Positions 7,722-31,524 of a DNA stretch of 32,000 nt are shown one piece after another (the first letter of the stretch is position 1; each line of letters opens with the position of its first letter). Both the position numbers and the translations under genes were made by a program. The stretch is from Candidatus Saccharimonadota bacterium (GTDB lineage: Bacteria > Patescibacteriota > Patescibacteriia > 2-12-FULL-60-25): contig JALHOH010000002.1 in assembly GCA_022843095.1 (NCBI GenBank), positions 30,001 through 62,000 on the forward strand. The letters run 5' to 3'. The notes beneath the pieces were generated by a model. That model was given only the letters and a program-made list of their open reading frames with translations. It was not told the origin of the DNA and made no database searches.

Positions 7722-8771
7722 ATGTATCAAGATCTCTCCCTTGCCGTTCGTCCGCTCGCCTTATTGGCCGCCGCGTTTGCCGCCTCTGCTGCCGGAATGC
7801 CTCTGCTGATTCGATTATTGCGTCGGTACAAGATGGGCAAATCCATCCGAACGGCGGCGGATGCGCCCGTGATGCATGCGCTGCATGCAAAGAAAGCGGG
7901 AACGCCTACGATGGGGGGGATGATTATTTGGATCGTGACGCTGCTCGTCGTGGGAGTGCTCGAGCTTGGGTGTTTGGCGTTTGGTGAAGGGAGCCTTGCC
8001 TGCACATGGTCGCTTTGGAATCGCGCGCAAACATGGGTACCGATTGGTCTCATGGTGGCTGCCGCGTTGGTTGGATTGGTGGATGATTATCTAAACGTCA
8101 TTCATTCAGGACCAAAAGGCGGTGGTCTACGCGTACGTCATCGGTTATTGCTTTATACCGCCATCGCCGTGGTGGGAGCCTGGTGGTTTTACACAAAATT
8201 GGAATGGAGCGTGATTGGGATTCCGTTCGTGGGAAACATTGATCTTGGGTGGTGGTACGTACCGTTTTTCATCCTCGTTGTCGTTGCAACACAGCATAGC
8301 GTGAATGTGACGGATGGGTTGGATGGATTGGCGGGCGGGACGTTGTTGTCTTCCTTTGCGGCGTATGCGGCCATCGCCTGGTCGCAGGGGCGTTTTGATG
8401 CGGCAACGCTTTGCACCATCATGATCGGCGCGTTGATGGGATTCCTGTGGTACAACGTAAATCCGGCGGATGTGTTTATGGGAGACACGGGGGTCATGGC
8501 GATGGGGACGGTGCTGGCACTCATGGCAATGCTGACCAACACCCCGCTTTTGTTGATTCTGATCGGACTCCCGTTTGTCGTCGAAAGCGCCTCAGTGTTG
8601 ATTCAGGTGACAAGCAAGAAACTGCGCGGGGGTAAGAAGGTGTTTATCAGTGCCCCATTGCATCACCATTTGGAGGCGTCGGGATGGAGTGAGCCGCGCA
8701 TCGTCATGCGTTCTTGGATGATTTCGTTTGTGCTCGCCGGGCTTGGAACGGTGCTTGCGCTCATCGGGTAG
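7722..8771 (+). CDS. mraY: Phospho-N-acetylmuramoyl-pentapeptide transferase
   Basis: HAKKAGTPTMGG, NVTDGLDGLAGG, SAPLHHHLEASGWSEPRIV. About 10 TM helices. Confidence 0.92.
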   Translation: MYQDLSLAVRPLALLAAAFAASAAGMPLLIRLLRRYKMGKSIRTAADAPVMHALHAKKAGTPTMGGMIIWIVTLLVVGVLELGCLAFGEGSLACTWSLWNRAQTWVPIGLMVAAALVGLVDDYLNVIHSGPKGGGLRVRHRLLLYTAIAVVGAWWFYTKLEWSVIGIPFVGNIDLGWWYVPFFILVVVATQHSVNVTDGLDGLAGGTLLSSFAAYAAIAWSQGRFDAATLCTIMIGALMGFLWYNVNPADVFMGDTGVMAMGTVLALMAMLTNTPLLLILIGLPFVVESASVLIQVTSKKLRGGKKVFISAPLHHHLEASGWSEPRIVMRSWMISFVLAGLGTVLALIG

Positions 8772-8788: not shown

Positions 8789-8797
8789 TGGTATAGT
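8789..8797 (+). promoter_or_regulatory. Extended -10 promoter TGgTATAGT, 6 nt upstream of ftsW ATG 8804
   Basis: Read directly. Same geometry as 665-673 and 16265-16273. Confidence 0.5.
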
Positions 8798-8803
8798 GAA
8801 CGC

Positions 8804-9931
8804 ATGGCATTCATGGATCGCCTGCGGGCGCTGGATCCCGGCGTCGTTGCGTTGACCGCCGTGATTTTGGCGTTTGGACTCGCGATGCTCATGTCTGCGA
8901 CCGGACCGATCGCTGTGCAACGTACCGGCGACAGTTTGTTTTATGTGAAGCGTCAGTTGCTTTCGGGGGTGCTGCCTGGGTTGTTTGGGTTTTTTACGCT
9001 CGCGCTCATCGATTATCGACGTTGGCGACCATTCGCATTTTTTTCTCTGGTCGCCTCGATCTTGCTCCTGCTGCTTGTCTATATCCCGGGCGTCGGATTT
9101 GAATTAGGCGGAGCGCATAGTTGGGTGTCGCTAGGCGGATTCACCTTTCAGCCTTCTGAGTTGGTGAAGCTCACGTTTCTCGTGTACGTCGCCGCGTGGC
9201 TCGCCGTCCGGGAACGGGAAGACGTCCGCTCATTCGAGCGCGGGTTTATCCCATTTTTTGGCGCGGTCGGGTTGATTGCGCTCATGCTTATCCTGCAGCC
9301 GGATACGGGGACGATGTCTGTGATCGTCGGGACGGCGCTTGTCTTGTATCTCGTGTCCGGTGCGCCCCTCCACTGGTTTGCAGGGGTGTGCGTCCTTGGG
9401 TTGACCGGGTTGTACCTTCTTATCAAGTCTTCGCCGTATCGCACGGCGCGATACATGACGTTTTTGCATCCGGAGCTTGATCCAAAGGGGATTGGGTATC
9501 ACATCAACCAAGCGTTACTTGCGATTGGTTCGGGTGGGATCTGGGGGGTGGGTTTTGGGCATTCGCGGCAAAAATATTTGTATCTTCCAGAAGTCGAGTC
9601 TGACTCGATTATTGCCGTAATAGGAGAAGAGATGGGCTGGATCACGATTGTGGTATTATTGAGTTTGTACGTGGCACTCGTGTTACACGCATTTCGGATC
9701 GGTCGAGCTGCGCGCGATCCGTTCGGGATGTATCTCGCAGTTGGGATCGGGGCATGGATGGGAATTCAGGTGGTCTTGAATATTGGCTCGATGACAGGTT
9801 TGCTTCCCATGACCGGTGTCACGCTTCCGTTAATTTCTCATGGCGGGTCTTCGCTTGCGGTGAGCCTGACTGCATTGGGTTTACTGGCGGGTATTCCGCA
9901 ACACGCTGGTGCACGTCCATCAACATTATGA
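8804..9931 (+). CDS. ftsW: SEDS-family lipid II flippase / peptidoglycan polymerase FtsW
   Basis: FQPSELVKL, LQPDTGT, LPEVESDSIIAVIGEEMG and PLISHGGSS motifs. Polytopic. Confidence 0.9.
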   Translation: MAFMDRLRALDPGVVALTAVILAFGLAMLMSATGPIAVQRTGDSLFYVKRQLLSGVLPGLFGFFTLALIDYRRWRPFAFFSLVASILLLLLVYIPGVGFELGGAHSWVSLGGFTFQPSELVKLTFLVYVAAWLAVREREDVRSFERGFIPFFGAVGLIALMLILQPDTGTMSVIVGTALVLYLVSGAPLHWFAGVCVLGLTGLYLLIKSSPYRTARYMTFLHPELDPKGIGYHINQALLAIGSGGIWGVGFGHSRQKYLYLPEVESDSIIAVIGEEMGWITIVVLLSLYVALVLHAFRIGRAARDPFGMYLAVGIGAWMGIQVVLNIGSMTGLLPMTGVTLPLISHGGSSLAVSLTALGLLAGIPQHAGARPSTL

Positions 9932-11223: not shown

Positions 11224-12276
11224 ATGCAGCATCTCGACGCATGGCGCACGCGTTTTCATCCAATTCTTGAGGAATTGGTGGAGGAGCGTATTGCGGAATT
11301 CAGGGCAAAAACCAAGGAGTCTGTTTTGCGATCGCTTCTGGATCATGTGAAGCCGCTCGTCCTGGCGGGAGGAAAACGGATTCGACCCTACTTGGCGGCC
11401 ATGGTATTTGAAGCGACCGGGCGTTCGTCCGAAGAGGTGTTGCGCGTGCTCTGTGGATTGGAGCTCTTTCATGCCTTTGCGCTTGTCCATGATGACATCA
11501 TGGATCACGGGGAGATGCGCCATGGGGTCAGTACCATTCATACCTATGCGGCACAGGGGTACGTGCAGAGTCCACGTGCAGCAGAACTGGGTCGAAATCA
11601 GGCAATTTTGATTGGAGATTTGCTGTTTGCGTGGGCAGAGCGATGTTTTGGACAGATCCCATCGGTTCCGGCAGAGGCGGCGGATCAAGCAAGAGCCTAT
11701 TTCTCTGTCATGTGTGAGCAGGTCGTGTTGGGGCAGATGCTGGACGTCCATGCAACGCATGAGCCATTCGCGAGCATGGAGGACGTCATTCAAAAAATGT
11801 CGTTAAAAACGGCGGGATATACGTTTGTTCATCCGTTACAGATCGGTGCAGCGCTCGGGGGTGCACCCGTGTCCTGGATGGAATGGGCGGAGGCATTCGG
11901 TCGTCCGCTTGGTCTTGCGTTTCAGCTGCAGGATGATGTGCTTGATATTTGCGGAGAGGCGGCGGTTTTAGGAAAACGCCCGTGTATGGATGTACGTGAT
12001 CGTCAGCAAACGTGGGTATCAGAATGGATGCGACGGCATGCGCCTGATGCATGGAAGACGTTGCATGATACGTGGTGGGGTCGCGCGTTTTCTGTGGATG
12101 AAGAAGGGGAGGTGCGCGCGTTGTTTCAGCGTTCCGGGGTATTGGAAGCGGCGGATGAACAGGCACGACGTTGGTTGGAGGAGGCGCACATGGCCCTGAC
12201 ATCCGCTCCGTTTCAGGGCGCGACACGTGCCCCGTTTCAGGAACTGCTTCAGAAGCTCACCGATCGGAATACGTAA
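11224..12276 (+). CDS. crtE: Polyprenyl diphosphate synthase, probable geranylgeranyl diphosphate synthase
   Basis: FARM LVHDDIMD and SARM FQLQDDVLD. Phe at position -5 before an uninserted DDxxD fits C20 chain-length control. Sits upstream of crtB/crtI. Confidence 0.8.
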   Translation: MQHLDAWRTRFHPILEELVEERIAEFRAKTKESVLRSLLDHVKPLVLAGGKRIRPYLAAMVFEATGRSSEEVLRVLCGLELFHAFALVHDDIMDHGEMRHGVSTIHTYAAQGYVQSPRAAELGRNQAILIGDLLFAWAERCFGQIPSVPAEAADQARAYFSVMCEQVVLGQMLDVHATHEPFASMEDVIQKMSLKTAGYTFVHPLQIGAALGGAPVSWMEWAEAFGRPLGLAFQLQDDVLDICGEAAVLGKRPCMDVRDRQQTWVSEWMRRHAPDAWKTLHDTWWGRAFSVDEEGEVRALFQRSGVLEAADEQARRWLEEAHMALTSAPFQGATRAPFQELLQKLTDRNT

Positions 12277-12279
12277 TCT

Positions 12280-13149
12280 ATGGATGCAACACTCCATGCT
12301 GCGATTCGTCACTGCCGAGCGCTCCATCGCATGCATGGCAAGAGTTATTATTTCGCAACCGCATTATTTCCAAAGGATCTCCGCGACGCGACGTATGCCT
12401 TGTATGCATTTTTTCGAGTGCCGGATAACCTGGTAGATGCGGCGCATGCGGATGTTGTGCAGGCAGAAGCGGCGTTAGATGCGTTTCAGGAGGGATGGAA
12501 GCGGGCGTACCAGGAAAAAACGTCTGACGACCCTGTTTTGCATGCGACGCAATGGGTGTTTCATCAGTATGGGATCCCGTTTGCGCTCTCCACGGATTTT
12601 TTGCAGGCCATGCGGCAAGATCTTCACAAGACGCGCTATGCGACGTATGAAGCCTTGCGGCAATACATGTGGGGATCTGCTGCCGTGGTCGGACATATGA
12701 TGTGCTACGTGATCGGGATGAACGATCCGCGTGCGCTTCCGTTTGCGGAGAAGCTGGGCTACGCGATGCAGCTGACGAATTTTCTTCGCGATATTGGGGA
12801 GGATGTGGACGATCGTGGACGCATTTATCTTCCTGCGGATGAGCGCGCCGCGTTTGGTGTGACGGATGAAGTGGTGCAAGTGCATCAGATGTCTCCGGAG
12901 TTCATTTCTTTTCTTCAAGAGCAAATCGCGAGTGCCGATCGGTTATACGCTGAGGCAGAGCCTGGAATCGCGCTTCTGCATCCGCGTGGACGCTCGGCGG
13001 TTCGCGTGGCAAGTCGTCTGTATCAGCAGATTCTTCGCAAGATCGAGGCAAATCAGTATCGGGTGTTTGAAGGACGCGTCAGAACATCATTTTTGGAAAA
13101 ATGTATTCTAGCTCTTCGTGCGTTATGCATCAGAAACAGGTCATCGTGA
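12280..13149 (+). CDS. crtB: Phytoene synthase
   Basis: SYYFATALFP, YAFFRVPDNLVD (DxxxD), NFLRDIGEDVDDRGRIYLP. Confidence 0.9.
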   Translation: MDATLHAAIRHCRALHRMHGKSYYFATALFPKDLRDATYALYAFFRVPDNLVDAAHADVVQAEAALDAFQEGWKRAYQEKTSDDPVLHATQWVFHQYGIPFALSTDFLQAMRQDLHKTRYATYEALRQYMWGSAAVVGHMMCYVIGMNDPRALPFAEKLGYAMQLTNFLRDIGEDVDDRGRIYLPADERAAFGVTDEVVQVHQMSPEFISFLQEQIASADRLYAEAEPGIALLHPRGRSAVRVASRLYQQILRKIEANQYRVFEGRVRTSFLEKCILALRALCIRNRSS

Positions 13150-14630
13150 TCGGGGGTGGATTTGGAGGGCTTGGCGTGTCGGCGCTGTTGGCAAAAAAAG
13201 GGTATCGCGTAACGTTGCTTGAAAAAAATGAGCAGTTGGGCGGACGGGCGAGTCGGCTTTCCGTCGACGGATTCACCTTCGACATGGGGCCGACCTGGTA
13301 TCTGATGCCGGACGTGTTTGACCATTTTTTTCGGTTGCTCGGGACATTGGCGGCGAAAGAATTATCTCTTGTTCAGTTGCAGCCATCCGATCGGATTTAT
13401 TTTAAAGGATCCGGAAAAACGGTGGAGCTGTTTGCCGATCGTGTACGGGACCGCGAAACGTTTGAGCGTCTTGAGCCTGGGGCGGGTGCCGCGTTTATTT
13501 CGTACTTGGATCGGTCAAAGGAGCAGTATGAAATTGCGAAGCGTTCATTTTTGTATCGCAACTATGATCATGTCTGGGATTTTTTGAATCGTCAGACCTT
13601 GGTTGATGGAACGCGGCTTTCGGTGTTCCGCCGGATGCATGGGTACGTATCCTCGTTTTTTCGGACGCCGGAAGCGCAAAAACTGATGGAGTATCAGCTG
13701 GTTTTTTTGGGAAGTTCTCCGTATCAGGCGCCGGCGCTGTACAACTTGATGAGTCACGTGGATTACGATCTGGGCGTGTTCTATCCGATGGGGGGGATCT
13801 ACGAAGTCGTGCGCGCGATTGAACGCCTTGCGCGTGCGTCGGGGGTAGAGGTGCGGACACAGGCGCCGGTGGAGCGGATTCTCGTGGAACGTGGGCGCGC
13901 CGTGGGTGTTCGTTTGGAATCCGGAGAAGAGCTAACAGCGGACGCCGTGGTTTCGAACGCGGATCCACGCTGGACGGATGAGCAATTGCTGCCCGCCGGA
14001 TCGCGCGACCGCTCTGCGGGGTATTGGCGTCGCCGTACGCTTGCGCCCTCGGCATTTATTCTTTTCTTGGGGGTGAAAAAGAAGTTTGAAGGGTTGCGGC
14101 ACCATAGTTTGTTGTTTACGGAAGATTGGAAAAAGAATTTCATGGAGATTTTTGAACGCCCTGCGTGGCCGGAAGATCCGTCGTTGTACGTCTGTGCACC
14201 GTCTGTGACCGATCCAAGCGTTGCGCCACCTGGTCATGAAAATCTGTTCGTCTTGGTTCCGATTGCGCCCGGCCTCGCCGATCATGCGGAGGCGCGTGAG
14301 GCGTATGCGCAAAAAATCCTCCGGATGATGGAGGAACACATGGGGTTTGCAGGCTTACGCGAGAATCTCGTTCTTCAGCGATCGTTTTGCGTATCGGATT
14401 TTGCGTCGCGGTATCACGCGGATCGAGGGACGGCGCTGGGTTTGGCGCATACCCTTGCGCAGACCGCCGTGTTTCGGCCCAATAATATCAGCAAACGTGT
14501 CGGCGGATTGTATTATGTCGGCGCCGGAACCAATCCGGGGATTGGAATGCCGGTGTGTCTGGTCAGCGCCGAACTCGCGTATAAGCGGATTGTGGGAGAT
14601 CGATCCATCGGACCGCTTGAGACGTTGTAG
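13125..14630 (+). CDS. crtI: Phytoene desaturase (CrtI family)
   Basis: VIVIGGGFGGLG FAD fold, FDMGPTWYLMPDVF, C-terminal YYVGAGTNPGIGMP. ATG 13125 overlaps the crtB 3' end by 25 nt. Confidence 0.9.
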   Translation: MHQKQVIVIGGGFGGLGVSALLAKKGYRVTLLEKNEQLGGRASRLSVDGFTFDMGPTWYLMPDVFDHFFRLLGTLAAKELSLVQLQPSDRIYFKGSGKTVELFADRVRDRETFERLEPGAGAAFISYLDRSKEQYEIAKRSFLYRNYDHVWDFLNRQTLVDGTRLSVFRRMHGYVSSFFRTPEAQKLMEYQLVFLGSSPYQAPALYNLMSHVDYDLGVFYPMGGIYEVVRAIERLARASGVEVRTQAPVERILVERGRAVGVRLESGEELTADAVVSNADPRWTDEQLLPAGSRDRSAGYWRRRTLAPSAFILFLGVKKKFEGLRHHSLLFTEDWKKNFMEIFERPAWPEDPSLYVCAPSVTDPSVAPPGHENLFVLVPIAPGLADHAEAREAYAQKILRMMEEHMGFAGLRENLVLQRSFCVSDFASRYHADRGTALGLAHTLAQTAVFRPNNISKRVGGLYYVGAGTNPGIGMPVCLVSAELAYKRIVGDRSIGPLETL

Positions 14631-14634
14631 AAGC

Positions 14635-15504
14635 TCACGAAGTCAACCAGAGCGACCAGGCAAAAAGCAGCATGCCGGCAACCGTGTTGATAAATGGAAA
14701 TGCGCGGTAGACCGCGAAGAATCGCATCGGTGCATCAAAGACGCGAAGCGCGTGAAGCATGAGTAGCACATACCCGGCGCCCAAGAATTTAAACAGGGCG
14801 AATCCGGTGGCGAGGATGGCGAGTGTCGCGGCGCAGGCGTACAGCGCAAGACAGAATAGAAGCGTTCCACGTCGTCCAAGGGTGGTGGCGATGGTAGAGA
14901 GGTGTGCGGCGCGATCGGCTTCGATATCGGGGATGGCGCTGAAGGCGTGCATGGCAGCGCACCAAAGCGCCGCGGCAAGCAGGAGCCGCGTATCGAGCAC
15001 GGATCCACCGGCGAGCAGATAGCCGATGATGCCCGGAACGGCGTACAGGGCATTGCTTGTACTATCCAAAAATGGACGCGCTTTCAAGCGCAGCGGGGGG
15101 AGTGAATAACTAACGCTGAGGAATAAAAAGGCGGCGAACCACAGCCGAGTAGGGGCGAGTGGGGCCCACACAAGCCACAGTAGGAGAAATGGAAGGGTGA
15201 GACCCGCGATCGTGCGCAACAGCGCGGGCGCATCCGACGGAGAAAGGCGGGACTCATACCCGTCTTTTTTTGTATTTTGCGCGTCGGTATCCAGGTCTGC
15301 CGCATCGTTGACACCGTACAAAAATAGATTTGCCGGGAACGACCACCAAAGCATGTTCAGAAGGAGTGCGGGAAGTTGTGTCGAGGGGGGAAGACCCGGT
15401 GCTGCGGCAACACCAACAAGAAACGGTCCAAGGAGATACAGCCAAAAACGCACACGACTCGTGCGTTTCGCGACATTCCAGGGTACGATAGTCCACGCAT
15501 GCAT
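14635..15504 (-). CDS. UbiA-family prenyltransferase, lycopene elongase (LyeJ/CrtEb)-like by context
   Basis: YGVNDAADLDTD (NDxxDxxxD) and IPDIEADRAAH (DxxxD) motifs. About 8 TM helices. Convergent with crtI (4-nt gap) and head-to-head with the CruF-like gene. Confidence 0.7.
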   Translation of the reverse strand: MHAWTIVPWNVAKRTSRVRFWLYLLGPFLVGVAAAPGLPPSTQLPALLLNMLWWSFPANLFLYGVNDAADLDTDAQNTKKDGYESRLSPSDAPALLRTIAGLTLPFLLLWLVWAPLAPTRLWFAAFLFLSVSYSLPPLRLKARPFLDSTSNALYAVPGIIGYLLAGGSVLDTRLLLAAALWCAAMHAFSAIPDIEADRAAHLSTIATTLGRRGTLLFCLALYACAATLAILATGFALFKFLGAGYVLLMLHALRVFDAPMRFFAVYRAFPFINTVAGMLLFAWSLWLTS

Positions 15505-16239
15505 AGAATGAGTATGCCTCGCGCGCACGTTTTGGCAACCTGCGCCACCGGATGTGCCGTCCTTGTGGGGTGGATGGCTGCATCATTTACAGGGAATACG
15601 ACTTGGGTCGCCATACCTGCGCTTCTTTTAATGTCTCTCCCTTCGGTCACCGCATTTGTCCGATGGGTGGGGTGGACGCGTGGGGGTGCGGCATTGATTG
15701 CGTTATCGTTGTTTGCATTTCTTGTCGAAAGCGCGGCGGTATACACGGGGTTTCCGTATGGCGCGTTTACGTACGGCACTGGCTTGGGCCCCCGGGTTTT
15801 TGGGTTGGTTCCTTGGGTTGTGCCGCTTGGGTGGATCCCGTTGATTCTTGGCGCCGTACCGCTTGCGTCACGCATGGCGAGTGGATTTGCCTGGCGCGTT
15901 GCCTGGGCGGGAATCTTTGTCATGCTCATGGACGTGGTATTGGATCCCGGAGCGGTTCGGATGGGGCTCTGGACGTTTGTGGAAGGCGGAGGTGTTCATG
16001 GCGTTCCGATTCAGAATTTTGTGGGGTGGGTGATGACGGGGGTCTTGGGGAGTGGAATCGTGCAGGCATTTTCTCGTTTCACCACAACGCCGACCCCAGC
16101 GGCGCTTTGCATCAGCGCGGCGCTGTCGATGGGATTCTGGTTTGGGTATGCGCTCGGGGCTTCGCTTTGGGTTTCAATTGTCGTCGGGTGTGTCATGCTT
16201 GCGGGGATGGGATGGATCGTGTGGAGCGAAAGAAAATAG
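15499..16239 (+). CDS. Carotenoid biosynthesis membrane protein, CruF-like (carotenoid C-1,2 hydratase family, PF04240-like)
   Basis: [25 protein letters not shown] and [14 protein letters not shown] resemble the Caroten_synth/CruF family. Start uncertain (ATG 15499, 15508 or 15514). Confidence 0.65.
15511..15538 (-). promoter_or_regulatory. Candidate promoter TTGCCA-16-CATACT, 6 nt upstream of prenyltransferase ATG 15504
   Basis: Read on the minus strand. Lies inside the 5' coding region of the divergent CruF-like gene. Confidence 0.4.
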
Positions 16240-16264: not shown

Positions 16265-16273
16265 TGGTATACT
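16265..16273 (+). promoter_or_regulatory. Extended -10 promoter TGgTATACT, 6 nt upstream of AAA+ ATG 16280
   Basis: Read directly. No SD. Confidence 0.5.
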
Positions 16274-16279
16274 GCGTCC

Positions 16280-17497
16280 ATGCAACCGATCATTGCGCCA
16301 GGGACGACCTCCGGGCCAAATCCGTACATCATTATCGCCCTGCTTGCCGGCGCAGCGATTAGTTATTTGTGGACGCGCAATCGTTGGCGTCGCGAGCATG
16401 GAAAAGATGGCGGCACGTTGCCGGCAGGGACGGTGGGGAATGTGCTTGCAAAATACACCGAAGATCTGACCGCGCGTGCCGAACGCAAAGAATTGGATGC
16501 GGTTATTGGGCGGGATGAAGAAATTCGTCGCGTGATGCATATTTTGTCCCGACGAACGAAGAATAATCCCTTGCTGCTTGGAGAGCCTGGGGTCGGGAAG
16601 ACGGCAATCGTGGAAGGGATCGCACGACAAATCGTGGCAGGGGATGTTCCTGATGCGATCAAAGGTAAGCGTGTCCTTGCGCTGGATTTGGGGGCGCTGA
16701 TCGGCGGAACCAAATACCGTGGAGAATTTGAAGAGCGCATGAAAAAGCTCACCGAAGAAATTCGGGCCGAAGCGCGTCGTGTGATTTTGTTTATTGATGA
16801 GGTGCACATGGTGGAGCAGGCAAAAGGGGCAGAAGGGGCAATCAACGTGTCCGATATTTTGAAGCCGGCGCTCGCGCGTGGAGAATTGCAGATGATCGGG
16901 GCGACGACGTGGCGGGAATTTGAGATGTATATCAAAACCGACGATGCGTTGAACCGACGATTGCAGCCGGTCATCGTGGGCGAGCCTTCGGTTGATGCGG
17001 CGCTCGCCATTTTGCGGGGATTAAAGCAGACCTACGAAGCGTATCATCGTGTCGTGTATGACGAGGCGGCGCTGCAGGCGGCTGTGTCACTGGCGAAAGA
17101 GAAGATTCGAGATCGGTATTTGCCGGACAAAGCGATTGACTTGATTGATGAAGCAGGCGCGCGCGCATCCATTGAGGCGTCGCATGATGGAAAGCATGCC
17201 TTGGGGCTCTTGCATGCGGCCGGGGTAGAAAAGCAAGCAAAATTACAAACCGTGGATCGTCGGATCGCCATGCTGCGCGAAGAGTTGGGGCATGTGACCA
17301 GGCTTGCCGAAGATATGCGGCATGATCCGGAGTTGGACGAAATTCGCTTGCGATTGTCGCATGTCGTCGAGGCGGCAGAACACGTTCGTCAGGAGCTCGA
17401 TACCGGCGCTGGAGATCGTTTGCCGGTTGTGACCGCGACGGATATTCAGGACATTGTGGATGATTGGGTCGGAGCCGCTCCAGCAAATCCCCGGTAA
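16280..17497 (+). CDS. Membrane-anchored ClpB/ClpC-like AAA+ ATPase, D1 module only
   Basis: N-terminal TM ([16 protein letters not shown]). Walker A GEPGVGKT (16580-16603), pore loop KYRGEFEER, Walker [37 protein letters not shown]. Short coiled coil, then the D1-D2 linker [16 protein letters not shown] followed by a stop. Confidence 0.85.
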
Positions 17498-17500
17498 TTG

Positions 17501-17509
17501 TGCTATTCT
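17501..17509 (+). promoter_or_regulatory. Possible internal extended -10 TGcTATTCT, 10 nt upstream of ATG 17520
   Basis: Begins 4 nt downstream of the AAA+ stop codon (17495-17497). Would allow independent transcription of the downstream gene. Confidence 0.35.
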
Positions 17510-17519
17510 TTTGCCATCT

Positions 17520-18914
17520 ATGCCTCCTTCAACCATGACAAAAACCACCACCCAAACCACCACGGCCACAAAAGTGGGCGTTGCGGTGACGATCGGGTTC
17601 GTGGCGGGTCTTGCTGCATACGGTTTTGGATTTTTACCCACGTTTGATCAGGGATACACCGAAGATGTGGCGCAGGTCGATCCGTATGCGATGTGCGTGG
17701 ATTCCTGCAAAGATCCCTTGGTCGGCTGTTTTGCCGCGGGTGGGGACGCGGATAGCTGTTATGAGCCGTACAATAGTTGTATTGCGAGTTGTAAACAGGT
17801 GAACGCACCGCAAACCGAAGAGATCGCCGTGCAGGATCAAACTGGGCAGTCACAACAAGGAGGGGAAAGTTGCAGTGAAATGTGTATGGTGAAGGTATCC
17901 GCCTGCTTGCAGCGCGTGGCAGATGGGAGTCAAGAAAACTGCGCAGAACAAAAAATCCTGTGCCAAATGTCCTGTGCACCGGCATCCTCGCAAACACAAG
18001 CCTGCTTTGGTCAATGTGATGCAGAGTTAAATAGTTGTCAGGGTGCGCGACGCGGAGACGATGATCGTGTGCAACAGTGTCGCTCGCAACATGAATCCTG
18101 CTACGAACGGTGCTACGACAATGAAAAGCGGGCGATTGAGAATGAACCAGCGCCTCCAACACCGCCCATTGCGCAAGATGTCCCGCCGGCACCGCCGATT
18201 CCTCCAAAGGAAGAGCCACCCGTCGAAGAACCAGCTCCGACGCCACAGGTTCCGGATGCAGATGTCTCTGGGTCCTGGATGTTGCCCACGGGGATGCTTG
18301 TCCTCGAGCAGAATGGGAAGTCGGTGAAGGGAAGCGCGATCCTGAACGTCCTTTCTTCAAAGCCTACGGATGGAGTGATTCCGGTGCTCAAGATGTATGT
18401 CCCGGTAGAAGGTACGGTGACGGGCAATACGTTCACGGGTGTATGGAAGGCGTGTTATTACTCGGAATCAAATTGCAGCAACAACCCCCTCGTTCTCACG
18501 TTTGATCCGGAAAAGCAGCAGTACAAGGGAGAAAAAGGATGGTGCGGAGCGCGTCCCGGGGTGACCTTCCCAGACGGCTGTGGGTTCTCCATGAAGGGGT
18601 GGAAGGTGAACGGGGCGATCACATGCGCGAACCCTACGATGACGTTGGAGCAGTGGGATGATCAGGTTAAAGGAACGATTTGCAACCGACCGTTTAAGGG
18701 AAGTATCGCGCCGACAACGGGCTTGAACGTCCACCTGACGGGTTTCATCGACAACAAGCCGGATACCTCGCATTCACTCAACTTCTACCTGTTTTTGGAG
18801 GAGAACGAGCCGTATGCAGGGAAGCCGTCGCAGATGCGTGGAAACTTCGCCATCAGCGAACCTCTCTGTGCCGCGGCGCCAGGAGAAGAGTTCCCAGAAC
18901 CGTGTGTTCAATAA
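17520..18914 (+). CDS. TM-anchored exported cysteine-rich protein (3 x six-Cys modules, Pro-rich linker, duplicated C-terminal domain)
   Basis: Thr/Lys-rich N-tail, then TM VGVAVTIGFVAGLAAYGFGFL. 18 Cys in three CX3CX6C...CX6CX3C modules. PAPPTPP...PAPTPQVP linker (18147-18254). 8 further Cys in the C-terminal half. Start could also be ATG 17535. Confidence 0.7.
   Translation: MPPSTMTKTTTQTTTATKVGVAVTIGFVAGLAAYGFGFLPTFDQGYTEDVAQVDPYAMCVDSCKDPLVGCFAAGGDADSCYEPYNSCIASCKQVNAPQTEEIAVQDQTGQSQQGGESCSEMCMVKVSACLQRVADGSQENCAEQKILCQMSCAPASSQTQACFGQCDAELNSCQGARRGDDDRVQQCRSQHESCYERCYDNEKRAIENEPAPPTPPIAQDVPPAPPIPPKEEPPVEEPAPTPQVPDADVSGSWMLPTGMLVLEQNGKSVKGSAILNVLSSKPTDGVIPVLKMYVPVEGTVTGNTFTGVWKACYYSESNCSNNPLVLTFDPEKQQYKGEKGWCGARPGVTFPDGCGFSMKGWKVNGAITCANPTMTLEQWDDQVKGTICNRPFKGSIAPTTGLNVHLTGFIDNKPDTSHSLNFYLFLEENEPYAGKPSQMRGNFAISEPLCAAAPGEEFPEPCVQ
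17694..17792 (+). repeat. Six-Cys module 1 (protein-level repeat) C-x3-C-x6-C-x9-C-x6-C-x3-C
   Basis: CVDSCKDPLVGCFAAGGDADSCYEPYNSCIASC, counted from the translation. Confidence 0.8.
17871..17975 (+). repeat. Six-Cys module 2 C-x3-C-x6-C-x11-C-x6-C-x3-C
   Basis: CSEMCMVKVSACLQRVADGSQENCAEQKILCQMSC. Confidence 0.8.
18003..18113 (+). repeat. Six-Cys module 3 C-x3-C-x6-C-x13-C-x6-C-x3-C
   Basis: CFGQCDAELNSCQGARRGDDDRVQQCRSQHESCYERC. Confidence 0.8.
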
Positions 18915-18927
18915 AGAAGAAACAGAA

Positions 18928-18954
18928 AACACCCACCGCGTTCCGGTGGGTGTT
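18928..18954. terminator. Hairpin terminator between convergent Cys-rich gene and antiporter gene
   Basis: AACACCCACCG-CGTTC-CGGTGGGTGTT. The T-rich tract is better on the minus strand (after the antiporter gene). Confidence 0.7.
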
Positions 18955-18969: not shown

Positions 18970-20343
18970 CTACTCGGCGTCGGTGAGCGCTTCTTCCATG
19001 TGCGGCGACGGATCGGTCGGCGCGAAGAGCGAGGGGTCGCGTTCCTTGGCGCGTTTGATGGCACCTGGTAGGAACACGCCGGTCACGACCGCGCTACCGA
19101 TGACGAGCGCGACGCAGACGGCGAAGACCGACTGGTCCACCGCGTGTACGGCGAGTCCGCTCGACACAATGACGAGCGCGACCTCACCACGTGGGATGGT
19201 CGCGAGGCCGAGCACGACCGGATCGACCCCCTTGCCGCCCAGTTTCCCGAGCGCGAGCTTGGTGCCGACCAGAATCGCGAGGCAGCCCGCGAAGAGCGTG
19301 ATCGCCTTTGCCGTAAACAGCAGGGGCAGATCGACCTTCATCCCGACCTCCAGAAAGAAGAAGGGGACGAAGACGTAGGCGAGCGGCTTGAACAGGTACT
19401 CTGCACCATGTTCTTTGCCGTCGAAGTCCGTGAAATGGGCTTCGGTGAGAAACACGGCACCTGCATACACGCCCATGAGAGGCGAGAGGCCGATGGCGTG
19501 CGCGACGATGGCGGCCAAGAAGCAGGGCACCAGGACGAATTTGAGTCGCATGGACTCCGTTCCCGCATACCGGGACAGGATGCGCGAGCTCATCGGCGCT
19601 AGGTAATACCCGATTCCGATCGCGATCACCATGAAGAGCGATGCCTTCACGATGGGGACCAGGACGAGCGCCGGCGTCACCGTTCCGCCACCTGCCATGG
19701 TCTGGATGACCGCCATCACGACGAGGCCGATGATGTCATCGATCGCCGCGACGTTCATTGCGAGCTGCGCCGCCTTGCTGGACAGTACCCCCAGATCCTT
19801 GAGGATCTTGGCGGCGATTCCAAGCGAGGTTGGCGTCACCATCCCGCCGATGAAGAGCTTGGTCGCGAGCGGTGCGGTAGGCATGAGAACAGACACGAGC
19901 CCGAACCCGACGGCGAAGAGCGGAATGGCCACGCCAAGTGCAGCCAGTAGTCCTCCGATGCGCGCGTTCTTGATCATCTGCGGTAGATCGGTTTCGAGCG
20001 CCGCCATGATGAGCAAGATGCAGACTCCCACGTACGAAGCGTACGGGAGTCCAGGGTTCGCTTTCAGCGCATCCGTGAAGGGCAGGTGCAGGTAGTGTCC
20101 GTTACTCACGAACACGCCGAGCAGGAGCCAGCCGATCGCCTCGGTCAGCCCCGTCTTCTTTTGGAACACGGTGCCCACGAGGTGCGCCGTGAATCCCAGG
20201 AAGACAAGCGTGGCGAGCATCTTGATCGCACCACCTTCATCGAAGGCGTGTCCCGCGCCATGCGCCTCCGCCCAGGCTTGTACCGGGGTCAAAAACGCGA
20301 CGATGGCCGCGACGGTCGTCATAGGAATGTACAGTCGACGCAT
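18970..20343 (-). CDS. Monovalent cation:proton antiporter (CPA2 / Kef-NapA type)
   Basis: 457-aa polytopic ORF with a TIPRGEVALVIV (RGE) motif and glycine-rich helices. Signal-peptide-like N-terminus (VQAWA/EAHGAGHAF). Strong SD AAGGAGGTG. Confidence 0.8.
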   Translation of the reverse strand: MRRLYIPMTTVAAIVAFLTPVQAWAEAHGAGHAFDEGGAIKMLATLVFLGFTAHLVGTVFQKKTGLTEAIGWLLLGVFVSNGHYLHLPFTDALKANPGLPYASYVGVCILLIMAALETDLPQMIKNARIGGLLAALGVAIPLFAVGFGLVSVLMPTAPLATKLFIGGMVTPTSLGIAAKILKDLGVLSSKAAQLAMNVAAIDDIIGLVVMAVIQTMAGGGTVTPALVLVPIVKASLFMVIAIGIGYYLAPMSSRILSRYAGTESMRLKFVLVPCFLAAIVAHAIGLSPLMGVYAGAVFLTEAHFTDFDGKEHGAEYLFKPLAYVFVPFFFLEVGMKVDLPLLFTAKAITLFAGCLAILVGTKLALGKLGGKGVDPVVLGLATIPRGEVALVIVSSGLAVHAVDQSVFAVCVALVIGSAVVTGVFLPGAIKRAKERDPSLFAPTDPSPHMEEALTDAE

Positions 20344-22446: not shown

Positions 22447-23271
22447 ATGCTCGACATTTCCGTGCCCGCAAAAGTGCTGTTTCACCTCGGTCCCGTTCCG
22501 GTGACCAATGCTGTCGTGGCAGCGTATGTCTCGACAGGCGTACTTGTGGTGATCGCGTTGCTTATTCGTCGCTCATTGTCGAGCGAACCCGGTCGTTTGC
22601 AGGCATTCATGGAACTATTGTTTGAGTACATCGATAACCAGCTCCTTCAAGCGTTTGGCGACCACACCCGTGCACGAAAGTTTTTTCCGCTGATCATGAC
22701 GTTGCTTTTGTTTATTGCGATCGCGAACCAGCTTTCGGTGTTTCCGTTGATTTTCCAGGTCCTTGTTGAGGATAAGCCATTACTGCGTCTTGCGACCTCG
22801 GATTTGAGTCAGACGTTGACACTTGGTCTTGTGGTCGTGATTTTGTCCCATATCGTGGCGCTGTCCATGGCACCACTCAAACACATCGGCAACTATTTCC
22901 GCATTGGCGCCATCCTTGCCATCCGTTCTCCAAAAGATATTGGCAACGCGTTAATTGAGGTGTTCTTGGGGATCATGGATCTGATTGGAGAACTTTCAAA
23001 AATCATCTCCATTTCCTGTCGTTTGTTCGGGAACCTGTTTGCCGGGGACGTCATGGTTGCGGTGATCGTCAGCCTTTCTGCGTTCACGCAGTTTATTGTG
23101 CCGATGCCGTTCATCTTTTTGGGGATCTTCTCCGGGTTTGTGCAGGCGCTGGTGTTTTCGCTCTTGTCGATCCAGTTTATCGCCGGTCTGGTAAACACGG
23201 CGGCGGCAAACAAAGAGGCGCGATTGAACAAGGGAAAACAAGCCGCTCTCGAGCAGCCCGCCACGGCCTAA
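22447..23271 (+). CDS. atpB: F1Fo ATP synthase subunit a
   Basis: SCRLFGNLFAGDVM (essential Arg) with polytopic topology. Confidence 0.9.
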   Translation: MLDISVPAKVLFHLGPVPVTNAVVAAYVSTGVLVVIALLIRRSLSSEPGRLQAFMELLFEYIDNQLLQAFGDHTRARKFFPLIMTLLLFIAIANQLSVFPLIFQVLVEDKPLLRLATSDLSQTLTLGLVVVILSHIVALSMAPLKHIGNYFRIGAILAIRSPKDIGNALIEVFLGIMDLIGELSKIISISCRLFGNLFAGDVMVAVIVSLSAFTQFIVPMPFIFLGIFSGFVQALVFSLLSIQFIAGLVNTAAANKEARLNKGKQAALEQPATA

Positions 23272-23282
23272 CAGTCTTGGCG

Positions 23283-23326
23283 CGCGGGAAGAGGATCTGA
23301 CAAACGTGTCGGATATTCTTCCCGCG
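23283..23326 (+). other. Long hairpin in atpB-atpE spacer
   Basis: CGCGGGAAGA (23283-23292) pairs perfectly with TCTTCCCGCG (23317-23326). Nested GACA-AACG-TGTC. A second small palindrome ATGACG-CT-CGTCAT lies at 23327-23340. Confidence 0.4.
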
Positions 23327-23365
23327 ATGACGCTCGTCATCCGATTTACTCATTTTTCTACGCAT

Positions 23366-23596
23366 ATGGAAGCAGAAGCAATGAAGTTTTTGGCCGCCGG
23401 CCTGTGCATGGGTCTTGGCGCCATCGGTCCGGCACTTGGGGAAGGGTTTGTGGCGGCAAAGGCCATGGAAGCCATGGGACGCAATCCGTCCGTCGCAGAC
23501 AAAATGGTGCCGAACATGATCGTCGCCATGGCCATTTGTGAATCCACGGGTATTTACTCCCTCGTCATTTCCCTCATTTTGTTGTTCGTCGTCTAA
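23366..23596 (+). CDS. atpE: F1Fo ATP synthase subunit c with Na+-site signature
   Basis: GLGAIGPALGEGFVAAKAMEAMGRNP...AMAICESTGIYSLVISLILLF. Start is ATG 23366 or 23381. The listed GTG 23306 extension is rejected. Confidence 0.9.
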   Translation: MEAEAMKFLAAGLCMGLGAIGPALGEGFVAAKAMEAMGRNPSVADKMVPNMIVAMAICESTGIYSLVISLILLFVV

Positions 23597-23618
23597 TCGA
23601 CGAGCATCGCGTCTCGAT

Positions 23619-24116
23619 ATGGATGCATTACAAAAACTCGGCATCGACGGCTGGAGCATGCTGCTCTACCTGGTGAATACCGGGCTCTTGCTCGTCTTAT
23701 TGACGAAGCTGCTTTACCGTCCGTTGCTTTCCATGTTGGACGAGCGTCGCGACACGATCCGTCGCAACTTGCATGAGACGGAGCTTTTGAAGCAGCGGTT
23801 TGCGGAAGAAACAAAACAGCGGGAGAAGGAAACGCGCGCTGCCATGGATCGGTTGCAGGCAGACATTGTGCTTGCAAAGGAGCAGGCGGAATCGCGTGTC
23901 AAAACGTTGCTTGCGAATGCGGAACAGGAACGAGATGCTTTGCTTGAAAAGGCGCGTATCCAGATTCAGGCCGAAAAGGGCCGCCTCTTGAAGGAGGTTG
24001 AGGTTGAATCGCGGAAGCGTATCGAGCAGACCATTCTCTTCGTCTTGAAGAATAAGATTCCCGAAGCCACCGTCCGCGCGAGCGTGGAAGAGGCGTGGAA
24101 GGAATTGCACGCGTAA
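23619..24116 (+). CDS. atpF: F1Fo ATP synthase subunit b
   Basis: Single N-terminal TM (MLLYLVNTGLLLVLL) followed by a long charged helix. Position in the operon supports the call. Confidence 0.85.
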   Translation: MDALQKLGIDGWSMLLYLVNTGLLLVLLTKLLYRPLLSMLDERRDTIRRNLHETELLKQRFAEETKQREKETRAAMDRLQADIVLAKEQAESRVKTLLANAEQERDALLEKARIQIQAEKGRLLKEVEVESRKRIEQTILFVLKNKIPEATVRASVEEAWKELHA

Positions 24117-24121
24117 TCCGT

Positions 24122-24877
24122 ATGTTCGCCTCCCTGCTTCGCGCTGCCATGAAAGACGTGCTCGGCGCGGTGACAAAACGCACCACGCTTGTATCGTCCT
24201 ATCCGCATGCGCTTCGTGTCTATGCGGAGCAGACCACACTGGATGGACTCGCAGAAGATCTACGCGCGCTGCTTCCGGCATTGGCCTACGGGACATCGCT
24301 GCGCGGGATCGCGACACGGGAAGAAGGCGGGGAAGGATCGGCGAAAGGACTCAATCTTGCCGAGCGTTTTGCGCGGGAACCGATTGGGTCGCGGGCGCCC
24401 ATGCCATCCATGGAATTCATGCGCGATTTGGATCAGTATCTCCAGTCGTTGGCAAAAACGCAGGCGACGCGCGTTGAAAACGGGTTTGTGAAGGCGCTCG
24501 CCATTGCCTGTCGAGAAGAGATCGCTGCAAGTCTGGATGATGCGCAGGTGTCGTTTCCGGGGACAGAGCTTGGGGCATTGCTGCAGGAGTGGCATCGCCG
24601 AACGGTGGTCACCGTTGCGGAAGAGCACATCGGCGAGGTGCTCGCGCGGGAATGCGGGGTGACGCCGGTCTTGGTCCAGTCTGCCGCTCCGGTTGCTCCA
24701 TCGGTGCGTCAGGAAATGCGCGCGGCTCTTGCGCGGAACTATGGGGCGGTGTTCGTCCGATTTCGGACGGAGCCGTCGGTGTTCGGTGGATTGCGGGTGT
24801 TTGTGCGCGGTGCGTTGCAGGATCAGACCTGGATCGCCCGCGTCGGTCGCGTGTTGCAGCCTGAACAGGGTTTTTGA
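24122..24877 (+). CDS. atpH: F1Fo ATP synthase subunit delta (OSCP), divergent and elongated
   Basis: Position between atpF and atpA. C-terminal VRFRTEPSVFGGLRVFVRGALQDQTW is OSCP-like. 251 aa. Confidence 0.6.
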   Translation: MFASLLRAAMKDVLGAVTKRTTLVSSYPHALRVYAEQTTLDGLAEDLRALLPALAYGTSLRGIATREEGGEGSAKGLNLAERFAREPIGSRAPMPSMEFMRDLDQYLQSLAKTQATRVENGFVKALAIACREEIAASLDDAQVSFPGTELGALLQEWHRRTVVTVAEEHIGEVLARECGVTPVLVQSAAPVAPSVRQEMRAALARNYGAVFVRFRTEPSVFGGLRVFVRGALQDQTWIARVGRVLQPEQGF

Positions 24878-24888
24878 TCCGATTTCGT

Positions 24889-26403
24889 ATGTCTCACGAT
24901 TCTCTCCAACAATTTTTCAAAGCCATCGACCTCGCGCTCGCGGAGGCGAAGCCAAGCGGCGCCATCTCCGGCGTCGGCGTGATCCGTTCGGTCAAGGACG
25001 GCATCATTGAAATCGGCGGGTTGCCGGAGGTGCGCCTCGGTGAAGTGGTGCGCGTGCTGGGTACGCCGGCGCACGCCCTCGTGATGCAAGTGGATCGCGA
25101 TGCCGCGTTCGGCATCCTGCTTGAATCGTCGGAGGGGATCCGCGAAGGACTTTCCGTGCAGTCGGAAAATCGCTTCCTCGCGATCAACGTTTCTGATGCG
25201 ATTTTGGGCCGCGTCGTCGATCCGCTGGGGGTGGTGCAAGATGAAGGACCGTCGCTGGAAGGGGGGAAGCCCATGATGTTGGAAGCGCAGGCGCCGTCGG
25301 TCATGGATCGTTCGCCGGTGAATACGCCGGTGCAAACGGGGATTGTGGCCATCGATGCGCTGATTCCGATTGGTCGCGGGCAACGCGAACTGATCATTGG
25401 CGATCGTCAGACCGGGAAAACAACGGTGGCGATCGACACGATTTTGAACCAAAAAGGGAAGGGGATGATCTGTATTTACGTTGCCGTTGGGCAGCGTGAA
25501 TCGCGCACGGCAGAAGTTGTGACGTTGCTCAAAGAGCGCGGTGCCATGGAATACACGGTTGTCGTGTCTGCGGGGGCCTCGAGTCCGGCGATCATGCAGT
25601 TCCTTGCGCCGTACGCGGGAGCTGCGGTCGGGGAATATTTTATGCACCAGGGCAAAGATGCGCTTGTGGTGTACGACGATCTGTCCAAGCACGCCGTGGC
25701 GTATCGTGAAGTGTCGTTGCTTTTGCGCAAACCGCCGGGCCGTGAAGCCTTCCCGGGAGATGTGTTTTACATCCACTCTCGGTTGCTTGAACGCGCCGCA
25801 AAGCGCGACGAAAAAGTGGGAGGCGGGTCGTTGACCGCGCTTCCGATCGTCGAAACGCAGGCGAACGACGTTTCTGCGTACATTCCGACGAACGTCATCT
25901 CCATCACGGACGGGCAGATCTTCCTAGAGTCCTCGTTGTTCTACCAGGGGATTCGTCCGGCCATGAACGTCGGGATTTCGGTGTCACGCGTGGGTTCGGC
26001 TGCGCAGACGAAAGCGATGAAAAAAGTGTCCGGGACGGCGAAGCTGGATTTGGCGCAGTACTATGAGCTGGCTGCGTTTTCGCAGTTTGCGTCTGAATTG
26101 GATGCGTCGACCAAGCAGCAGCTGACACGTGGGGAACGCGTGGTTGAAGCGTTGAAGCAGCGCGCACATGAAATTTTGCCACTCTGGCAAGAGGTTGTGT
26201 TTTTGCGCGCCGCGTCGTCTGGTTTGTTGGATCGCCTCCCGAAGGACAAGGTCGTCTCCGCGTTGCGCGAGATGGCAAACGTGTTTGAGATGCGCCATGC
26301 CGACCTTGTGCAGGCGTTGGAAGAGACGAAGGCTTGGTCCGATGAACTGGGGCCAAAGGTGGATGCGGCGTTGAAGAGCCACTTCGAAGCGCTCGCCGTT
26401 TAA
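24889..26403 (+). CDS. atpA: F1Fo ATP synthase subunit alpha
   Basis: GDRQTGKT P-loop, LVVYDDLSKHA, SITDGQIFLE. ATG 24889 preferred over TTG 24874. Confidence 0.95.
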   Translation: MSHDSLQQFFKAIDLALAEAKPSGAISGVGVIRSVKDGIIEIGGLPEVRLGEVVRVLGTPAHALVMQVDRDAAFGILLESSEGIREGLSVQSENRFLAINVSDAILGRVVDPLGVVQDEGPSLEGGKPMMLEAQAPSVMDRSPVNTPVQTGIVAIDALIPIGRGQRELIIGDRQTGKTTVAIDTILNQKGKGMICIYVAVGQRESRTAEVVTLLKERGAMEYTVVVSAGASSPAIMQFLAPYAGAAVGEYFMHQGKDALVVYDDLSKHAVAYREVSLLLRKPPGREAFPGDVFYIHSRLLERAAKRDEKVGGGSLTALPIVETQANDVSAYIPTNVISITDGQIFLESSLFYQGIRPAMNVGISVSRVGSAAQTKAMKKVSGTAKLDLAQYYELAAFSQFASELDASTKQQLTRGERVVEALKQRAHEILPLWQEVVFLRAASSGLLDRLPKDKVVSALREMANVFEMRHADLVQALEETKAWSDELGPKVDAALKSHFEALAV

Positions 26404-26408
26404 CGTTC

Positions 26409-28741
<2,333 letters not shown>

Positions 28742-31262: not shown

Positions 31263-31263
31263 A

Positions 31264-31524
31264 TTATTTTCGCTTGAGTTGGTAGACCTGAAGAATTTCT
31301 TGAACAGCCTTTTCTTCGTTCCCTTCTCGGATTTGTTGAATCGCGCAATGCGAAAGATGTTGCGCGAGTAGCAGATCTTCGATGGAGGTGAGCGCCTGTT
31401 TGATGGCGGAGGATTGTGTAATGACGTCGATGCAATAGGCATGGTCCGCGATCATTTCGCGCAGACCGCGCACCTGGCCTTCGATGATTTTTAATCGACG
31501 TTCAAGAGAGGCGGGGTGTTTCAT
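31264..31524 (-). CDS. csoR: CsoR-family copper-sensing transcriptional repressor
   Basis: LKIIEGQVRGLREMI. Cu(I) ligand pattern C-x25-H-x3-C (YC...QHLSHC). ATG 31524 chosen because the listed TTG 31560 coincides with the -35 box. Confidence 0.9.
   Translation of the reverse strand: MKHPASLERRLKIIEGQVRGLREMIADHAYCIDVITQSSAIKQALTSIEDLLLAQHLSHCAIQQIREGNEEKAVQEILQVYQLKRK

Follow-up and report, generated by a model that had tools for sequence, protein, structure and literature searches.

The closest described counterparts of the system treated here are the Clp/Hsp100 motors ClpC, ClpB and ClpA, the membrane extractors Msp1 and ATAD1, and the membrane-anchored AAA+ protease FtsH. The system itself lies in a stretch of 32,000 nucleotides from a Candidatus Saccharimonadota bacterium (contig JALHOH010000002.1, positions 30,001 to 62,000 of the forward strand), the whole of which is called the window and supplies the coordinates below. 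It consists of gene A, for an ATPase that is anchored in the membrane and has one Clp/Hsp100 D1 module, and gene B, for a single-pass surface protein that begins with a Thr/Lys-rich tail, here called the tag. The tag and the membrane helix behind it recur on proteins encoded beside other ATPases of the gene A family (the carriers); motor and tagged proteins go together genetically throughout the family, and it is the cytoplasmic tail and helix, not the exterior, that this coupling follows. A direct functional coupling of genes A and B is highly probable. That they form a conserved two-part module of Patescibacteria, in which a membrane-tethered AAA+ threading motor acts on one or more tag-marked clients, is a proposal with about an even chance of being right.

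16280–17497, plus strand: gene A, ATPase with a membrane anchor and one Clp/Hsp100 D1 module (ATG at 16280, 405 residues)
17498–17519, plus strand: intergenic spacer of 22 nucleotides, containing TGCTATTCT
17520–18914, plus strand: gene B, single-pass tag-bearing surface protein (ATG at 17520, 464 residues, N-terminus MPPSTMTKTTTQTTTATK-VGVAVTIGFVAGLAAYGFGFLPTF)

An initial annotation of the locus had described two co-oriented genes 22 nucleotides apart, a D1-only membrane ATPase with its bulk in the cytoplasm, and a single-pass partner with a short Thr/Lys tail and a Cys-rich exterior. The present analysis agrees with it on each of these counts: the genes share a strand with that spacing, the ATPase has one D1 module of the ClpC/ClpB fold behind an N-terminal membrane helix, and the partner has a single hydrophobic segment (residues 19–42) after an 18-residue Thr/Lys tail, and 26 Cys.

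With ClpC, ClpB and ClpA the gene A protein shares a homologous D1 carrying Walker A and B motifs, the KYRG pore loop and RR(F/L)Q; a short helical hairpin modelled after its small subdomain may correspond to that of ClpC. It differs from them in having one ring, with a membrane helix and linker in place of the Clp_N domain, whereas they have two tandem AAA+ modules as well as Clp_N. In design it is much like Msp1 and ATAD1, a short linker joining the N-terminal membrane helix to a lone cytosolic AAA+ ring that carries no protease, and it is by analogy with these that pulling single-pass proteins from the membrane is proposed for it. However Msp1 and ATAD1 belong to the classical (meiotic-type) AAA clade, whereas all strong family and PDB matches of gene A are Clp/Hsp100 D1 modules and none is of the Msp1 type. 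Msp1 extracts tail-anchored proteins, and its clients are mislocalised ones not known to have a dedicated encoded tag; the putative clients of gene A, in contrast, are encoded next to the motor and have a conserved tag at their N-terminus.

FtsH is a membrane-anchored AAA+ protein whose pore faces the membrane across a linker of about 20 residues, and it is proposed to start on exposed N-terminal tails of membrane proteins (PMC9020784). Another account calls FtsH the only known membrane-anchored AAA+ protease family (PMC8943139). Two helices anchor FtsH in the membrane, and it carries a periplasmic domain and a fused M41 protease, in contrast to the Clp-type gene A protein, which has no protease domain.

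The same logic, in which surface proteins that are otherwise unrelated share a short conserved signal at one end and the processing machine is encoded next to some of them, is that of LPXTG proteins and sortase, of PEP-CTERM proteins and exosortase, and of accessory-Sec signals and SecA2. Unlike in those pairs, the tag here is N-terminal and cytoplasmic, and the machine is an AAA+ motor rather than a transpeptidase or SecA. In chloroplasts, Hsp93 (a ClpC) and Ycf2-FtsHi are discussed as ClpC-type or membrane-bound AAA+ motors pulling N-terminal transit peptides. Transit peptides are rich in Ser, Thr and basic residues and poor in acidic ones, and the likeness of the tag to them is in composition only. 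Further, Hsp93 and Ycf2-FtsHi import proteins across a membrane, whereas here motor and tag would be on the same cytoplasmic side from the start.

A full-text search of the literature found no description of a membrane-anchored D1-only Clp protein or of a Thr/Lys N-terminal tag in the Candidate Phyla Radiation (CPR). The finding is a variation on Clp/Hsp100 motors, on membrane-facing AAA+ extractors and on pairs of signal and machine, and is not categorically new. The CPR, or Patescibacteria, account for much of bacterial diversity. Members in culture grow attached to host cells, and most CPR surface proteins have no annotation. The 40-residue N-terminus alone provides a handle for finding a class of variable CPR surface proteins. 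The ATPase has a new Clp/Hsp100 architecture, in which a lone D1 ring is held at the membrane and no protease is attached. The pair may also be a bacterial case in which a membrane-facing AAA+ motor has its own encoded recognition tag at the N-terminus of other proteins. Because the alternating Thr-Lys tag is so short and portable, threading by a D1 ring alone and dislocation of a membrane helix could be tested in a heterologous host.

The ATPase and its family

In Pfam the gene A protein matches only AAA (PF00004) and AAA_lid_9 (PF17871), and the NCBIfam models for ClpB, ClpA and ClpV align with its D1 part only and score far under their equivalog cut-offs (363 against 1232 bits for ClpB). 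Residues 45–326 align to 148–435 of Bacillus subtilis ClpC, which is D1 (E 2e-88, phmmer against PDB sequences), and at that point, residue 435 of 810, the alignment ends. An AlphaFold2 model made from an alignment of 53 family sequences (predicted local distance difference test, pLDDT, 88.7) has a helix at 15–41, a disordered linker at 42–54, the large and small subdomains of D1, a hairpin at 283–374 and a closing strand and helix. Foldseek against the PDB matches this model to the D1 of ClpC and ClpB at about 2 Å over about 245 residues, with 56–58% identity (58% to Mycobacterium tuberculosis ClpC1). Neither Pfam, the alignment nor the model gives a second AAA module, a D2 or a second Walker A, and no Clp_N domain (PF02861) is matched, the membrane helix standing at the N-terminus instead. 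Peptidase_M41 is likewise without a match in Pfam, the protein ending after D1, and the ClpP-docking tripeptide (I/L)G(F/L) is absent from the 405-residue sequence; the ClpP-docking loop of ClpA and ClpC sits in D2.

16322–16402, plus strand: N-terminal membrane helix, residues 15–41 (AlphaFold2; hydrophobic N-terminus conserved in the family, basic stretch after it)
16580–16603, plus strand: Walker A, GEPGVGKT, residues 101–108 (G101, G104 and K107-T108 invariant)
16712–16723, plus strand: D1 pore-loop 1, KYRG, residues 145–148 (R147 and G148 invariant, K145 and Y146 conserved in at least 90%)
16790–16855, plus strand: Walker B, FIDEVH, followed by a family-specific segment (comparison with 34 canonical D1 sequences)
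17126–17401, plus strand: antiparallel helical hairpin, residues 283–374 (AlphaFold2 helices 283–345 and 350–374)

Across the 53 members Walker A, Walker B, R147/G148 and R226 of the RR(F/L)Q motif do not vary, and in one homologue the pore-loop Tyr is replaced by Phe. After Walker B the family continues with HM(I/V)... where canonical D1 modules have HTLVGAGAAEGAxDASNxL, EQAKG taking the place of VGAGA; this family-specific stretch is presumably the second pore loop of D1. Because the catalytic and pore motifs are conserved, the fold is that of a ClpC/ClpB D1 and the membrane helix is kept, the motor looks active. The basic stretch after the helix would, by the positive-inside rule, place the AAA+ domain in the cytoplasm. 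The hairpin is at the site expected for the ClpC middle domain and its sequence is alignable to ClpC only over the first turns; as modelled, it resembles a short middle domain of the ClpC type.

About 110 homologues of gene A, of 330–440 residues, carry an N-terminal membrane helix; in virtually all that are complete, the hydrophobic helix opens the protein and basic residues come next. Patescibacteria homologues of 65% identity are among those compared, and the homologues that carry a name are all Patescibacteria (Uhrbacteria, Magasanikbacteria, Doudnabacteria and the 'Parcubacteria group'). Measured from Walker A to the stop they fall into two size classes, one of about 300 residues with the hairpin, to which the window protein belongs, and one of about 250 residues without it. 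A related contig (L003) also has a full-length Clp ATPase of 859 residues, which makes the D1-only protein an additional paralogue rather than one half of a split gene; a split ClpB with its D2 elsewhere was considered and rejected on this ground and because no D2 gene recurs nearby.

Linkage of the ATPase to tag carriers

Eighty metagenome loci were fetched with a probe limited to the family-specific segment after Walker B, and collapsing their ATPases at 90% identity left 63 lineages, 51 of them evaluable. A scan of genomes with the whole ATPase, in which patterns of the EFEERMKK type were universal, gave one family locus only, and the 79 ordinary ClpB/C loci from it formed the control set. 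Candidate tags were first defined by a composition-plus-helix rule, which gives six mostly spurious matches in the 746 kb of control loci, and 41 adjacent N-termini were aligned into a tag profile of 44 positions. The profile was trained on ATPase-adjacent genes, although its seeds had been chosen with that rule, which is independent of it, and two kinds of control served as a check. It scores carriers at 20–57 bits, gene B at 52 and the best control at 14.3.

In 38 of the 51 lineages a tag carrier lies no more than 150 nucleotides from the ATPase (26 downstream and 8 upstream on the same strand, 4 divergent), and in 47 it lies within 3.5 kb. All 63 carrier matches are in the 331 kb of near flanks (up to 3.5 kb); the 178 kb of flanks beyond this distance on the same contigs hold none, against about 34 expected under uniform density, and none of 20 bits or more is present in the 746 kb of canonical ClpB/C loci. 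ATPase and carrier are usually 1–130 nucleotides apart on the same strand, and their adjacency persists down to about 45% ATPase identity while all other neighbours change. At several loci two or three carriers that differ in their ectodomains follow one another in tandem (L093, L135 and L169). In the reverse direction, three carriers found by tag profiles alone were traced to their contigs: one (P0137) has a 338-residue membrane-anchored D1-only ATPase 8 nucleotides upstream, the second (P0124) has no ATPase in its 3.3-kb contig, and the third (P0122) is at a contig edge and hence uninformative. The initial annotation had seen in genes A and B a dedicated pair, with the N-terminal tail as the part of the partner that the ATPase could reach, and had named neighbourhood conservation as the check; these counts bear that idea out, as does the finding, described below, that tail and helix are the only parts kept between partners.

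A profile of 10 tag N-termini gave four matches at E ≤ 10 among 5.8 billion proteins, a 45-residue profile being low-powered at that size, and an exhaustive search of 1.84 billion representatives gave 16 at E ≤ 0.001, of which 15 are at the extreme N-terminus.

A third conserved component is not seen, no other gene being present in more than 7 of the 63 neighbourhoods. RuvB and NusA neighbours are local synteny only, while Wzy_C-like and unknown polytopic proteins each recur in five lineages. The Wzy_C (O-antigen ligase-like) protein adjoins ATPase or carrier at L117:947-2314, L148:6698-8029, L157:4248-5543, L167:7942-9870 and L172:3349-4647, which hints that some carrier exteriors are glycosylated or envelope-linked. 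In five loci with short-class ATPases (L121, L131, L140, L158 and L171) an unannotated protein of about 620–700 residues with 11–17 predicted membrane segments recurs alongside, and the carriers are tiny (60–204 residues) with exteriors of (T)PGY-type repeats; these loci may be a three-part variant of the module.

The tag and its anchor

The first 40 or so residues of the gene B product are conserved in the neighbours of other ATPases and align position by position across the 41 partner N-termini.

17520–17573, plus strand: cytoplasmic Thr/Lys tail of gene B, residues 1–18 (matches a Thr-(Lys/Arg/Gln) x6 tag)
17574–17645, plus strand: hydrophobic anchor VGVAVTIGFVAGLAAYGFGFLPTF, residues 19–42, with conserved AAYGF and Pro
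Tag peptide: MPPSTMTKTTTQTTTATKVGV
L003, neighbour gene product: N-terminus MPGKQSTIVKTSVSTQTKVVVGVAVAFMAGLAAYGFGFLP
L005, neighbour gene product: N-terminus MKTITKTKVSTRVAVISIVAAALGIGLISYGFG
L093, three tandem genes: N-terminus MPTKTKSRTRT…
L088, upstream gene with a CARDB domain: N-terminus …VSVSKTKMAVAVG…

In the profile Met, often followed by Pro, leads into Thr at positions 6, 8, 10, 12, 14 and 16 (frequencies 0.48–0.83), alternating with Lys, Arg or Gln at 7–17. After the Thr repeat comes V-x-V-A and a hydrophobic run to about 36–40, which includes Ala 32 (0.86) preceded by G/A-L-A, Tyr or Phe at 33 and Gly or Ala at 34, and then Pro 41 (0.72). The median tail is of 18 residues, with a net charge of +3 against +1 past the helix, and exactly one membrane helix is found in 56 of 59 complete carriers. 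Carrier lengths range from 46 to 940 residues, and their Cys counts are mostly even. All these properties fit carriers that are oriented N-in, C-out and have most of their mass outside the cell. The ectodomains are unrelated to one another (CARDB, Fn3-like, Cys-rich, or without a match), and tail and membrane helix alone are shared by the partners. The tag is without a model in Pfam or NCBIfam.

Three known kinds of signal were compared with the tag alignment and profile and rejected. A Tat signal is not indicated, there being no RR consensus (the S/T-R-R-x-F-L-K motif), nor a lipoprotein signal, there being no conserved Cys after the hydrophobic segment. A type IV pilin (class III) signal does not fit the junction T-K-V-x-V-A, where −1 is neither Gly nor Ala and a Glu (+5) is missing. 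Ala 32 and the G/A-L-A before it would fit a Sec signal, but positions 33–40 stay hydrophobic or aromatic up to Pro 41. A compositional artefact was also set aside, the positions aligning in register and the best control scoring well below the carriers.

Some carriers comprise little beyond tag and helix (46–72 residues; L128:6809-6949, L095:143-343, L096:519-692 and P0122–P0125). Some of them are found where no ATPase is near, and they may be fragments of genes, decoys or small regulators.

A proposed mechanism

In the mechanism proposed, the membrane anchor of gene A takes the place of the Clp N-domain. Since Clp/Hsp100 substrates enter at the N-terminal face and the anchor replaces the N-domain, the substrate-entry face of the D1 ring would be turned to the membrane, a linker of 15–35 residues away, just where the tag of about 18 residues would emerge. 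On the most economical reading the pore loops would grip the extended tag, and ATP hydrolysis would pull the tag and then the hydrophobic segment out of the bilayer. In substrate-bound structures of Clp proteins and Hsp104 a hexameric staircase of pore loops grips extended segments, and by analogy a strictly two-residue-periodic, acid-free tag of 12 residues may well be the kind of segment that such a staircase grips. Whether the tag is indeed the threaded substrate element of the motor could go either way. By analogy with Msp1 and FtsH the result may be extraction or turnover of the anchor; its removal, turnover or release would then control which variable surface protein is displayed, and with no attached protease the motor would release the anchor or hand it over. 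The extracellular parts of the partners are variable and adhesin-like.

A broader reading, tentative and rather doubtful, is that some Patescibacteria use tag-directed membrane dislocation by a protease-free single-ring Clp motor, a bacterial counterpart of Msp1 that reads a (Thr-Lys)x6 tag and so controls the display, shedding or turnover of hypervariable adhesin-like proteins during host attachment; it is as part of this doubtful picture, and jointly with it, that the two-residue period and 12-residue length of the (Thr-Lys)x6 tag would match the grip of a hexameric AAA+ staircase.

Several points weigh against a threading motor acting on tagged clients. The linkage speaks for a functional tie and not for its nature, the contact of tag and pore being a prediction. 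The ectodomains are large and probably disulfide-bonded (26 Cys in the gene B product) and could not pass the bilayer; full extraction is implausible unless the ectodomain is cut first, so that the folded exterior would have to be shed beforehand or the pull would serve another purpose. Ala 32, following small residues, could be a signal-peptidase site, in which case the tag would be in a cleaved signal peptide. Gene A has no attached protease, D2 ring or ClpP-docking tripeptide, and isolated D1 rings of ClpB and ClpA are weak motors. Also, 4 of the 51 lineages have no carrier nearby, and at least one carrier (P0124, on contig L096) has no ATPase in its 3.3-kb contig.

Alternative explanations

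The partner may instead be an adaptor or regulator, whose tail or helix docks on the ATPase and which recruits or switches the motor through sensing by the ectodomain, the motor itself remodelling other proteins. Gene linkage is equally compatible with this; adaptors are common among Clp ATPases, ClpC with MecA being one of the matched structures, and some carriers are so tiny (46–116 residues) that they seem more like accessory subunits than clients. However the short-class ATPases still pair with carriers although they do not have the hairpin, and so the usual adaptor-docking element of ClpC is not needed. Two or three tandem carriers with different ectodomains better fit multiple clients, and a strictly alternating extended motif of 12 residues would be more like a threaded segment than a docking domain. 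Overall an adaptor is judged unlikely.

A specialised export signal of the Sec type, with an extended Thr/Lys n-region, is also improbable, to much the same degree. Here the ATPase would be a dedicated helper of export or maturation, which might prevent folding of the precursor, retain the signal at the membrane, or dispose of the signal peptide after a cut at AA|Y. The tag and anchor do have an n-h-c layout, the basic tail being followed by about 11–14 hydrophobic residues and by G/A-L-A-A with its frequent Ala and then Tyr or Phe, and in the accessory-Sec systems of Gram-positive bacteria a special N-terminal signal and a dedicated ATPase are found in one locus. But the hydrophobicity runs on past the putative cleavage site to the conserved Pro, more as in a full membrane helix, and the neighbourhoods share neither a Sec component nor a signal peptidase. 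A ring with its entry face towards the membrane, as Clp/Hsp100 structures would suggest, should moreover thread away from a translocon.

That the adjacency is incidental, the tag being a lineage-typical anchor of CPR surface proteins and the ATPase a general membrane chaperone that happens to be nearby, is very improbable. The carrier on L096 and the four ATPase lineages without a carrier would be accounted for in this way, but not the confinement of all 63 carrier matches to the near flanks, nor an adjacency that is kept, with short same-strand gaps, while the ATPases diverge to about 45% identity. Hardly credible is a pairing of the ATPase specifically with CX3CX6C Cys-rich proteins, the co-occurrence that the initial annotation had named as a check: a 6-Cys module does stand right after the helix in gene B (in three copies) and in five other partners, but these are only 6 of 63 (about 10%) and many partners have no Cys at all, which refutes it as a general rule.

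The exterior of the gene B product

Returning to gene B itself, its product has no match in Pfam or NCBIfam, and among 5.8 billion proteins no full-length homologue besides itself.

17694–18113, plus strand: Cys-rich region, residues 59–198, with three copies of the 6-Cys module CX3CX6C-Xn-CX6CX3C (regular-expression search)
18144–18911, plus strand: Pro-rich linker, then a C-terminal domain that has 8 Cys (sequence; model pLDDT below 50)

The 6-Cys module is palindromic and occurs once, directly after the membrane helix, in the carriers at L003:7204, L115:6715, L116:6715, L164:1879 and L147:2689. The partner on L003 has a weak match to the NCBIfam model 'Lepto_8Cys' (E 0.085). A single-sequence AlphaFold2 model of gene B (pLDDT 48) shows low-confidence helical hairpins in the Cys-rich region, and the C-terminal 8-Cys domain is probably beta-rich.

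Transcription signals

16265–16273, plus strand: extended −10 promoter element TGGTATACT, 6 nucleotides before the gene A ATG
18928–18954, minus strand: GC-rich hairpin of 11 bp (−19.6 kcal/mol), with its T-run on the minus strand

The extended −10 element had been put forward earlier as the promoter of the pair, and that gene A has its own promoter there is supported, because the window holds three copies of the composite TGNTATANT-N6-ATG (at 665, 8789 and 16265), where shuffling gives an expectation of 0, and because TGnTATA(A/C)T-like boxes lie upstream of many gene A homologues. The gene A mRNA is probably leaderless. Each copy of the composite (665–682, 8789–8806 and 16265–16282) ends on a plausible start, namely that of a permease at 680, an internal ATG of the FtsW open reading frame at 8804 and the ATPase at 16280. 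The three copies suggest extended −10 promoters that make leaderless mRNAs in the source organism, and the FtsW gene may start at 8804 rather than at the TTG at 8714.

The other two signals of the initial annotation fared less well. Its second promoter, TGCTATTCT at 17501–17509, matches a −10 element at four of six positions, and the loose pattern occurs 9 times against 6.3 expected, which leaves that call without support. The hairpin does exist, but as a terminator it fits another gene better than genes A and B. Because the T-run is on the minus strand, the hairpin belongs in the first place, as terminator, to the convergent Na+/H+ exchanger gene (18970–20343), the stop of which is 16 nucleotides before the T-run; the A-rich run on the plus strand ahead of the hairpin is the U-tract for that gene, and on the plus strand itself no U-tract follows. 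It may also end transcription of genes A and B.

Surroundings of the pair

The neighbourhood of the pair is ordinary chromosome. Upstream are cell-wall genes (an MraY-type transferase, FtsW and a MurG-type transferase) and a carotenoid cluster; downstream are the convergent exchanger on the minus strand, TrkH and the F1Fo ATP synthase operon. That operon is complete (22447–28741, plus strand) and, with a three-domain multicopper oxidase (29706–31442, minus strand), gives the window respiratory-type functions, which are missing from many CPR genomes. The carotenoid cluster (11224–16239), on a 526-kb contig of what seems to be a small Patescibacteria genome, comprises a polyprenyl synthase, a phytoene synthase, a CrtI-type desaturase, a UbiA-type prenyltransferase on the minus strand and a PF04240 'carotenoid biosynthesis' membrane protein, a set which we take to resemble C50-carotenoid pathways and to be unexpected in Patescibacteria.

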